A stretch of DNA of 64,000 nt, taken from a virus. Below are positions 38,201 to 41,200 of this stretch, in pieces (the first letter of the stretch is position 1; each line of letters starts with the position of its first letter). The notes below the pieces were generated by a model that worked only from the letters and a program-made list of their open reading frames with translations, made no database searches and was not told the DNA's origin. The position numbers and the translations under genes were made by a program. The DNA lies in the IMG/VR virus record IMGVR_UViG_3300023491_000002, one strand, 5' to 3'.

Positions 38201-41200
38201 GCTGCTAAATACTCTATATTCGATAATATATTCTTTGGTCGTAGATTCAATTGGATTGACGCTGTTACTAAAACAGAAGTTGAATATGCACCTAGCATAA
38301 ATAATGGTGATCTTAGTGCTGAACTTAATAGTTATTTGTGGCATCTTAGTCGTTATACTGCTCAAGTTCTTGAACAAAGTGGTAGACCTCTGCCTAGTTT
38401 CTTAGCTGATGTTCACTTCGGTTTAAGTGAGACTACAAAGAGTGATATTAATGCTCTTACTAACAAAATTATGCAGGAAGCTAAGAGTATGCAAATTAAA
38501 TTTGATATTATCAATAATACTATAGAAGATAATTTAGGTCGTAAGAATTCTAAATATGCTTTATATGTATCTATTGGTGGTGTTGAATATAGAGTGCTTA
38601 ATACTCCGAATCCTCGTAAAGATGTTGGTATTGTTATTGAAGGTTTTGAGAATCAACTTAATCGTTATGTGCTTACTCCCGCTAATATGGCAACTCCTAA
38701 CGATGATTATATTCTCATTGCTAGACAAACACAAAGCTCCGCTCCTGACCAGTCCTTGCCTCCTACCGGGGGCTACAAAGCTCAACAGAGTTCCACTGAT
38801 GAAACTATTACTCCTAAAACTGAGATTACAGAGACTGTTTCTAGTGCTAATGGTATTACTACTGAATTTGTAAGTGATGAAAGTTCTACTAATACCGATG
38901 ATGCGCCAATCGAGTTTGTAACGGCTTCAAATCAGCCCCTTATAGACTTCAAAATAGAGGGTATTGATACTAAATCCATGCTTGAATTTTTAATGTCTCT
39001 AATGAGCCAAGAAGGGGTAAATTTGGCACTATTTGACACGGATTTGATAAACGCTTTAGTGCTGATTCCAAAGCTACTTAGAAACACTAAAGTTGGTAGT
39101 AAGTATGCTTCTGATGCTTATATTAAAGCCCTAATGAATAAGTACTTTACAGACGCTAAACTTACTGGTGTTGAAACTAAGATTATTGAAACTGCTAAGA
39201 AAGTCGCAGCTGCTGTTAGTATTAACATTGACGAAGGTGGAAATTCAATTCGACTAAATACTGCTGAAAATTGTCGTAATGCTATCAATGCTCTTGATAA
39301 TCTTAAGAGTTTATATAAAGATGAATCTAAATGGTTATCAGATATGCAATCTCTTACAGATGCTCTGAATACTGTTTATGAATCTGATCTTGTTGCTAAG
39401 TTTGCACAAGTTCTTACTCAATCTAAAGATTATAATTCTAATGCTATTGCCATACGTCTTGATGAAACGCTTCATAACAAATTTGCTATGATTGCTCAAG
39501 ACTTAGGTGGTATCTTTGTTGATAATCTTAATCTCTTTGGTACACTTGTTGCTTTTATTAGTGATAGAAGTGGTTTTAGAATTAATAAGATTAACTATTA
39601 TGATCTTGTTAATGGTATGCGTGAATATCGTGGTGATAACTACAAAGAACTCATACCCGAAATCATGTCTATTATGAATATTACTAATTATCTTCATAAT
39701 GAATTTAAGAATAGACGTGATTACTATAGTGCTAGATTTGCAGTAACTAAAGATGCTACTTATAAAGAGCTTTATAATAATTATAGTTTCTTTTATGATC
39801 TTATAGATGTTGCTCCTACTAATGGTTTACCTTTAACAGAAGCTCAAGTTCTTGATTTTATTAATCGTACACCTGAGATTAAAGGTAAAACATATCATGA
39901 AGGTCTAGATATTAACTTTAGTCCTAACGGTGCTCCTGAGAATATTCTAGGTAATAGTACTGCTACTAACTTAGGTATTTATGAGTTACTTGATGGTATT
40001 AAAGAAGGTGATGAGGTTACTGTAGTTCAAACTGATTTAGAAGAAAATCCTAATAGAGCTTCTTATGATGTTGTAATGAATCGTAATGGTAAAGAGTATA
40101 AATTAGGTTCTATTCCTAAACTCGAAACTATTACAAATGGTATAGCGTATACAATTCAAGGTGCGAATGGTGTGTATTATCCACGTAAATTTGCATTTAC
40201 TGATGATATGGCTAAAACCTTTGCTGAATATCAAAGAGAGCTATTTAGATTCATGTATCATTACGATATTGCTTTTAATCCTCGTAATAATATATCTGCT
40301 AAAGACAGAGAGAACTCTGAACGTAACATTGATATTATCTTTGATCAGTTTAGAAAAGATCGCTTTAAGAAGCTAATGGATACACTTAAAGAACTTGTGT
40401 ATTCTAATCTTACATATAAGCAGATTAAAGATATTATGAATAGCCAGACAATGATCGGGGTTGTTGATTCTGAATATACAGGTGATACTGACGGTGAAAT
40501 TTCTATTGATAATGTAGCTCTTTCATTTAATCAAATATATCAAATTTGTACTGATTTATTTCCTGCTTCTAGGATTAATCATTCAAATATGGATAGTATT
40601 ATGAATGCTACGGCTATTACGAAACATTTCAATGACGCTGTTAATCGTCATGAAATGATCTTCCGTAATAATCAAGCTATTCGTAATGATATTCGCTTTA
40701 CAGGTTCTAATACTTTTAGAATAAGTCATATTAGTGCTGGTAGAATACTAATTAATGATGAAGCTCGCAACGAAGATCATGAGGCTAAACATGGATTACC
40801 TATTATGCATCATCGTAATTCTTTATTAGATTCTATTAAGCCTACTAAAGATGTTCTTGATTCTAAAGGTAAACCTAGAGTTCAAATACTAGCTATTGAT
40901 GAGAATGGTGTTGGTAAAGATCCTAAAACTGGTGGTATTGTTCAGAATATAGATAAGTTTGCAACACCTCATGTAGCTGATACTTTTATTGGTAATAGAC
41001 GTCATGAAGTTGTTGTTATACCTCAAACTGATTCACTTAATACTGTATTCCCTATATATCCTAATACTATTATGGGTTCTATCACCGATGAAACAGAAGA
41101 AGCTCGTATTAGTAAATTAGGTAAATATACAAAATATATTGGTGATGCTATTAAAGAAATTCTTGCTCTTAATACTGGTAATATAACCGAAGCTAGACTT

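Follow-up and report, generated by a model that had tools for sequence, protein, structure and literature searches.

Stoperators are 13-bp sites, found for the most part in small gaps between genes and aligned with the direction of transcription. In Cluster A mycobacteriophages, many dispersed copies of this one asymmetric site share a consensus that shifts jointly, lineage by lineage (PMC9283540, PMC6550527), and the repressor of the stoperators is known (PMC9283540). Here we describe a family of short GC-rich elements in a 64,000-nucleotide stretch of viral DNA (IMG/VR record IMGVR_UViG_3300023491_000002; hereafter the window) and, in particular, one member of this family, copy F, that lies inside the gene for a 2877-aa polyvalent protein. 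In behavior, stoperators seem to be the closest analogy to this family, which likewise consists of many dispersed copies of one asymmetric site with a joint, lineage-wise shift of the consensus, although it belongs to them neither by sequence nor by structure: the elements are ~50 nt long and GC-rich, contain a mini-hairpin and direct terminal boxes, occur in both orientations, lie in half of the cases inside open reading frames (ORFs), and would be recognized by a putative factor; no sequence relation with stoperators was found.

Four other kinds of repeats share some of these properties. In yeast mitochondria, whose genome is very rich in AT, the GC clusters are GC-rich elements of ~30-60 bp that frequently have short direct repeats on either side and now and then lie in frame in a coding gene (var1); they are also palindromic and optional between strains. 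The phage elements, in contrast, are fixed, are not palindromic as a family and undergo lineage-wide consensus shifts. Rickettsia palindromic elements are recognizable, protein-lengthening insertions with inverted ends and a presence that varies between strains. As short in-frame repeats that give rise to tolerated peptide segments within coding genes, these elements and the miniature inverted-repeat transposable elements of Coxiella (MITEs) resemble the intragenic copies described here (PMC10969869, PMC5896051); unlike them, the copies in the portal and ring protein genes add no length, and the family has no common inverted ends and no presence/absence variation among close relatives. Repetitive extragenic palindromes (REPs) and the mosaic elements that they form (BIMEs) are, like the window family, short dispersed GC-rich sequences with the tetranucleotide GTAG and a small stem of G-C pairs (PMC3733652). 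In REPs, which are extragenic and linked to RAYT transposases, GTAG precedes the palindrome; in the window family it belongs to the loop and the 3' arm of a 4-bp stem without a palindrome after it, and four of the eight window copies are intragenic. Finally, the promoter early stem-loop (PeSL) cassettes of T4-type phages are repeated motifs of ~50-70 nt with a stem-loop (PMC2839356, PMC4122927), and in one relative of the window a module insertion abuts copy F; however, PeSLs occur between genes, where they supply an early promoter and border the variable ORFs of hyperplastic regions, whereas for the window family we found no promoter, and its members lie at stable positions, including positions inside conserved genes.

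The window belongs to a crAss-like gut phage, with the large terminase, portal, major head protein and ring protein 2 recognized among its ORFs; none of the 11 window ORFs scanned is a transposase. The nearest named relative is cr127_1 (Crevaviridae, Kahucivirus), with a major-capsid identity of 49%; genomes of the clade are ~94 kb in size, and almost every gene in the window is on the + strand. With a profile made from the copies, exactly eight matches are obtained in the window, and six further family sites outside the window are seen in related contigs, for a total of at least 14 per ~94-kb genome. The family unit is ~50-60 nt long (~55) and GC-rich, and consists of a box GGARC(N0-2)TYTGYA, a core CCCC-RGTA-GGGG..(A/T)AG..GTGG..GGAGC, and the box again. 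The eight copies in the window are:

5770-5823, - strand: copy in the portal gene, a profile match, read in the same frame as F as AAPYHSLPSTGVLKA
18643-18694, + strand: intergenic copy, a profile match (18636-18694 with the closing stem GTTCCGC/GCGGAAC)
23160-23213, - strand: copy in the ring protein 2 gene, a profile match, read as VVPLLTTVYSPTGVWG
29208-29261, + strand: intergenic copy after a 1341-aa gene, a profile match (29196-29261 with the closing stem TGTTGCTC/GAGCAACA)
38732-38784, - strand: copy F, nhmmer profile E=7e-12, assigned to repeat family D10 and inverted pair I2, read in the polyvalent frame as (Q)SSAPDQSLPPTGGYKA(Q)
42766-42817, + strand: copy E, in the polyvalent gene, sense and in frame as NSLTPDREGAVEGSGT, ~40 aa upstream of the C-terminal ART module
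57218-57269, - strand: jA, an intergenic profile match, left member of an inverted pair at a convergent gene junction
57457-57509, + strand: jB, an intergenic profile match, right member of the same inverted pair

Thus, four copies are intragenic and four intergenic, with four on each strand. Along the window they alternate strictly in orientation (-,+,-,+,-,+,-,+; chance probability 2/256), a regularity that does not hold in the rest of the genome (+,-,-,+ in L087).

For comparison across the clade, we denote the window lineage W and its relatives N, J, S, K190 and K191. The polyvalent protein of J is 37% identical to that of the window at the amino acid level, the sister lineage of the window shows 68-72% amino acid identity, and the DUF932 identities of K190 and K191 are 68% and 62%, respectively. 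The inverted pair jA/jB is present in all lineages examined, down to 62% DUF932 identity, and an ortholog of E is present in lineage J, 4.07 kb from the J ortholog of F. A pattern scan of IMG/VR gave matches almost confined to this crAss-like clade, and two pattern scans of 185,579 species genomes gave zero and five matches. Two of these five are ~94.3-kb contigs in metagenome-assembled genomes (MAGs), and the other three are single matches in unrelated MAGs, with E>=0.017 against the element profile. The two contigs, JAAUYS010000080.1 (L148/L155, 'Clostridia bacterium' MAG) and CAJUAL010000008.1 (L149, 'Vampirovibrio' MAG), resemble complete phage genomes of the clade and look like mis-binned phage genomes. 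A host-derived repeat or a mimic of a CRISPR repeat was accordingly rejected, given that the species-genome scans produced no convincing bacterial copies. No gathering-score match to Rfam 15 was obtained in the window, only chance-level matches (E>7) around two copies, and no tRNA or tmRNA was found there. We found no description of such elements in crAss-like phages in the literature, and the family appears to be undescribed; its unusual features are the fixed, length-neutral intragenic copies, the constraint at the nucleotide level and the concerted evolution.

Copy F was initially annotated as an embedded GC-rich element, antisense and in frame, that is flanked by a 9-bp direct repeat. The description of the sequence is accurate: ACAAAGCTC occurs on the + strand at 38731-38739 and again at 38775-38783, the patch between the 9-mers is 60% GC compared to 33% for the gene, the family orientation is the reverse complement, and the ORF reads through the element as TQSSAPDQSLPPTGGYKAQQSST (aa 1174-1196). 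The host gene, ORF 35210-43843 (+ strand), encodes the 2877-aa polyvalent protein, with an ART-PolyVal domain at aa 2653-2835, and F lies at a domain/linker boundary of this protein, between a folded region (...DDYILIAR) and a Ser/Thr-rich linker. The parts of F are:

38731-38739, - strand: tail box, GAGCTTTGT in element orientation, overlapping the family 3' block GGAGCG-GARC
38762-38772, - strand: core mini-hairpin region, CCCCCGGTAGG, family consensus CCCC-RGTA-GGGG
38775-38783, - strand: head box, GAGCTTTGT, 44 nt from the tail box, with the same head in the portal copy and in site X4
38785-38794, - strand: second, upstream head box, absent from the initial annotation, ACAGAGTTCC on the + strand and GGAACTCTGT in element orientation

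Two origins had been proposed for the direct repeat, namely, a signature of insertion akin to a target-site duplication, or a part of the element consensus. The evidence supports the second: both 9-mers lie inside the region of family homology rather than in external flanks of F, and the single box GGARC(N0-2)TYTGYA fits the heads and tails at most of the 14 sites. The repeat is 9/9 only in the window lineage and 4-7/9 in the sister lineage and J, where the element occupies the homologous position with tails GGAACTTTCTG, GGAATCTCCTG or GGAACTCTGCG and heads GAGCTTYGTAG, GAGCTTCGTAG or TAGCTTTGCTG; orthologs of the F tail box read GGAACTTTCT, GGAATTTTCT and GGAACTCTGC, and the upstream head box is kept in the J lineage as GTGGAACT. 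An element at the homologous position without an intact repeat is an outcome that the initial annotation had listed as a refutation. Since the tails in the sister lineage and J fit the family consensus GGAAC, the GGAGC of the window looks derived. Nor is the flanking repeat clear at F only, as had been suggested: a direct repeat also brackets the N-lineage ortholog of site 29208 (13/13) and the copy at 57218 (~11/12). Exact 9-mer direct repeats 20-80 nt apart are in any case plentiful in the window (133 observed compared to 44 +/- 9 in shuffled sequences); ACAAAGCTC itself occurs a third time, at 52617, and nowhere else, with 0.58 matches expected per shuffled window. Thus, the 9-bp repeat around F consists of the family end boxes, identical by happenstance in the window lineage, and is not a target-site duplication.

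Excision and occupancy point in the same direction. The initial annotation had suggested removing F together with one repeat copy as a check; this deletion takes out 44 nt and causes a frameshift, with a stop after eight codons, so that no contiguous protein is restored. The F site was compared in 48 related genomes (19 IMG/VR loci, 28 metagenome loci and lineage J) and is occupied in all of them; a protein search for homologs of the region that lack F returned only close relatives. In all close relatives every family site is occupied, and the sole absence of an element is at site 29208 in the distant lineage J. The label 'embedded element' holds in the sense of family membership. In the ENA contig of one relative (P0004, 93,736 bp), the protein across F reads SPALTSLASLPGTISSTEFHF, a frame-shifted reading of the same DNA, with more shifts downstream; these are most likely indel errors of that assembly.

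The effect of an element on protein length can be assessed for portal and ring protein 2 only, because F has no element-free homolog. In the portal protein, 29 aa separate R from HCVFK in both the window and P0008, and 26-31 aa in the other homologs counted, so that the copy adds no length. In ring protein 2, YKY and NG are 30 aa apart both in the window and in the element-free cr127_1, and the aligned YTY-VNN of L151 also spans 30. At the ring site, a GC-rich CCCC..GGGG patch occupies the same PTG codons in phages that are only 36-41% identical.

Copy F and the family are under selection at the level of the nucleotide sequence. Between W and J, the nucleotide identity of F is 0.75 against a gene mean of 0.55 (96th percentile), and the flanks of F are ~20% identical in protein. 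A test of synonymous sites based on identical codons was uninformative, because codon bias leaves 65% of the codons identical anyway; we therefore examined GC-ending codons at conserved residues, which are retained in 5/7 cases in F (p=0.0012) and in 9/12 cases in F and E together (p=5.6e-6), compared to 15% in the rest of the gene (n=93). At the intergenic site 29208, a 24-nt core is identical in the W and N lineages, whereas the surrounding ~400 nt are unalignable.

Within each lineage, the paralogous copies change together. The tail GCGGAAC is replaced by GCGAYAY in 7/8 copies of K190/K191, which end in GGAGCGAYAY instead of GGAGCGGAAC; GTGG is replaced by GAGG in 3/4 copies of lineage J; and CCCC is replaced by WACC in 3/3 copies of lineage S. 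Lineage-specific changes common to the copies of a genome, the behavior of co-evolving operator-type sites, were thus found in K190/K191, J and S. Orthologs in W/N and K190/K191 are 0.57-0.60 identical, paralogs within K190 are 0.76 identical, and the cross-site background is ~0.65. At shorter range, between W and N, orthologs are 0.855 identical and cross-site pairs 0.656.

With moderate confidence, we interpret the family as cis-acting nucleic-acid sites that would be read by a co-evolving, putative trans-acting factor, with F as an old, fixed member. The phage keeps the elements at no fewer than 14 syntenic positions, between as well as inside genes, by selection on the nucleotide sequence, and the consensus shifts as a set in each lineage, with the positions constant, as would be expected of sites that track one trans-acting factor. 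The occurrence of both orientations among genes that are nearly all on the + strand favors DNA-level recognition, with double-stranded or extruded DNA as the most likely substrate. Two of the intergenic copies appear to have additionally recruited flanking complements, forming long hairpins. F may be tolerated in the polyvalent gene owing to its location at a domain/linker boundary, where the C-rich strand encodes a flexible Ser/Pro/Thr/Gly peptide. Several observations weigh against this interpretation. The factor is putative, and both its binding to the element and the process that this would serve are inferred; ~50 nt is long for a simple operator; and the codon test for F considered separately comprises only seven codons. 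The portal copy shows 7/51 differences, about the same rate as its flanks (about 10-12%), and the ring copy of lineage S no longer has the CCCC stem but still encodes the SPTG peptide, which indicates that the nucleotide constraint is not equal over all copies. In addition, the concerted pattern could come from gene conversion among the copies rather than from selection by a factor, although at shorter divergence, as the comparison of W with N shows, orthologs keep their site-specific features.

A rather unlikely alternative is that the elements work in transcripts, as RNA hairpins that terminate them, stabilize their 3' ends or mark processing sites, with the coding and antisense copies either decayed or acting on antisense transcripts. 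Strong hairpins are formed solely by the intergenic copies at 18636-18694 and 29196-29261, which fold at -30 and -28 kcal/mol, with closing stems contributed by flanks that lie outside the consensus; for the former (z=-3.7), a T run follows 7 nt downstream, and a compensatory GTTCTGC/GCAGAAC variant in a relative supports the outer stem of the 18643 copy. The sense strand folds slightly better through G-U pairs, and each of the four intergenic copies in the window is 'sense' relative to the gene cluster ending directly upstream of it; in the replication module, however, two intergenic copies are antisense to every neighboring gene, as are three of the four coding copies to their mRNA. Most copies fold no better than shuffled sequences (z=+1.56 for F), no Rfam match was obtained, and a simple terminator scan flags no element despite finding canonical terminators elsewhere; a scan for sigma-70-type promoters likewise gave no support at the elements. 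At site 29208, lineage J has, in place of the element, an unrelated A/T-only palindrome of ~100 nt (JAAUYS010000080.1, L155 16763-16899), suggesting that a hairpin is wanted there, and a hairpin role is plausible at some intergenic sites.

It is unlikely that the elements are conserved linkers at which modules are exchanged by homologous recombination, in the manner of PeSLs, with F as a domain-shuffling junction in the polyvalent gene. One observation in favor comes from an IMG/VR relative (L019, IMGVR_UViG_3300045988_110914; 3523-4688), which has an insertion, a block of 1164 nt in frame, exactly at window 38729|38730, the end of the F tail, with the tail box duplicated at the insertion. This block is paralogous to, and diverged from, the ART module downstream of E (window aa 2577-2838) and is 75% identical in nucleotide sequence to window 43012-43132. 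Furthermore, F and E both lie at domain/linker boundaries, and the copy at 57457 has two alternative left flanks among the relatives. Nevertheless, this is the only exact junction, and the other breakpoints between the window and N do not coincide with elements; the 29208 element is an island within a divergent zone and not at its edge, and conserved islands in mosaic DNA tend to resemble boundaries anyway. Moreover, copies that are only 64-76% alike, with no exact or near-exact copy of F found, are a poor substrate for homologous recombination, and the scan detected no promoter component.

The proposal that F is a miniature transposable element, of the MITE or GC-cluster type, that inserted into the polyvalent gene with duplication of a 9-bp target, is improbable. 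A dispersed, multi-copy family that is GC-rich in an AT-rich genome and resides in unrelated genes, with direct repeats around several copies (F, the N-lineage ortholog of 29208 and 57218) and one deep case of presence/absence (29208 in lineage J), has the general appearance of such elements, and the head of a copy is more similar to its own tail than to those of other copies (permutation p=0.0026). Subfamily structure, however, explains part of this last effect, and head-to-tail matches of at least 9 between unrelated copies occur in 6/182 pairs. The frame-breaking excision, the degenerate repeat around F in sister lineages, the unchanged length of the portal and ring proteins and the lack of empty sites in close relatives, reported above, all argue against insertion. 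In addition, one and the same box recurs as the 'duplicated' sequence at different sites, which makes it either part of the element or an implausibly strict target, and the solitary box is not enriched in the window (4 against 1.65 expected), which leaves a separate motif or free target unsupported. No family-wide terminal inverted repeat was found, inverted complements being present only at 18636-18694 and 29196-29261, where they differ from each other and lie outside the consensus; the element is also absent from the bacterial genomes scanned.

It is highly improbable that a peptide with the motif A-P-x-x-S-L-P-x-T-G-x-x-K-A (such as a linker or processing site of virion proteins) is what is conserved, with the DNA likeness secondary. 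In favor of this reading, the three antisense coding copies share one frame at the core (P/S-T-G), ring protein 2 keeps PTG almost without exception down to 36% identity, the peptide of F is an island of conservation between W and J, and lineage S retains SPTG with the DNA hairpin lost. However, half of the copies are intergenic, E (and site X2, if coding) uses the other strand and gives an unrelated peptide, the retention of GC-ending codons far exceeds the background, and ring protein 2 of cr127_1 has FPPNE at that place. A sortase-like LPxTG peptide was considered as well and rejected, the resemblance being limited to two copies.

Returning to the interpretation of the family as cis-acting sites, a broader and still doubtful, if possible, extension can be proposed from the sequence comparisons. 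The crAss-like phages of the Crevaviridae type might possess an undescribed class of cis-elements, ~50 nt long, GC-rich, at fixed positions and co-evolving with a putative phage factor, that would have been written into essential coding sequences by length-preserving replacement of patches ('overwriting', presumably templated), so that the same DNA would serve as a signal and as loop or linker codons; the ring protein 2 copy, traceable to phages of 36-41% identity, could be the progenitor. Few human gut viruses are as abundant as the crAss-like phages, of whose regulatory signals hardly anything is known. A family that is syntenic, selected at the nucleotide level, readable as protein and shifting by lineage, with an analogous family in cr127_1, offers a testable handle on a putative trans-acting recognition system in uncultured phages. 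For annotation, these findings caution against taking every GC-rich patch that is read in frame in a phage gene for an insertion, and indicate that the direct repeat around F should not count as a signature of transposition.

The cr127_1 genome (NC_055886.1; L153/L154) has its own GC-rich repeat family, with the consensus ACGAATTTCGGAACACCTCTCGCCCTTGTGGCCATTAAAC and nine copies:

1769, 11364, 11912, 19699, 28698, 28879, 42040, 42240 and 59333 (record positions): repeat copies in cr127_1

Three are arranged as inverted pairs, with spacings of 180-550 bp; one pair, within the giant gene gp48, forms a perfect inverted repeat of 29 bp, and another occupies the intergenic gap immediately ahead of a convergent junction, like the pair in the window. 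Homology between the two families was rejected, given that only CGGAAC and CTTGTGG are common to them, which is explicable by chance.

Two further types of repeats were considered for the window family and rejected. Template and variable repeats of a diversity-generating retroelement do not fit, because the differences between copies are not limited to adenines, the unit is too short and the copies are too many; a reverse transcriptase was not searched for. An invertible segment between the inverted pairs is also disfavored: the sequence adjacent to jB is in the window orientation in the relatives mapped, and the arms are ~70% alike, with no dedicated inversion test made. Between jA and jB, at window ~57296-57335, lies a conserved intergenic block, GCTTCATATATTGAYTAT..TTGGCAGA, that persists in lineages with as little as 62% DUF932 identity and may represent a promoter or small-RNA signal.

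Some features of the window away from the elements are also of note. The large terminase ORF (window 1445-4855) encodes 1136 aa, of which terminase profiles cover only aa ~346-1104, leaving an N-terminal extension of ~345 aa. Low-complexity GAAGAAGCTGCTAAAG repeats are present at window 7558-7650 in ORF 7473-8810, domain repeats spaced ~220-490 nt apart at 17136-18238 in ORF 16277-18625, and repeated CGTTGTGGTGG-type motifs at 30717-31449 in ORF 29275-32190.

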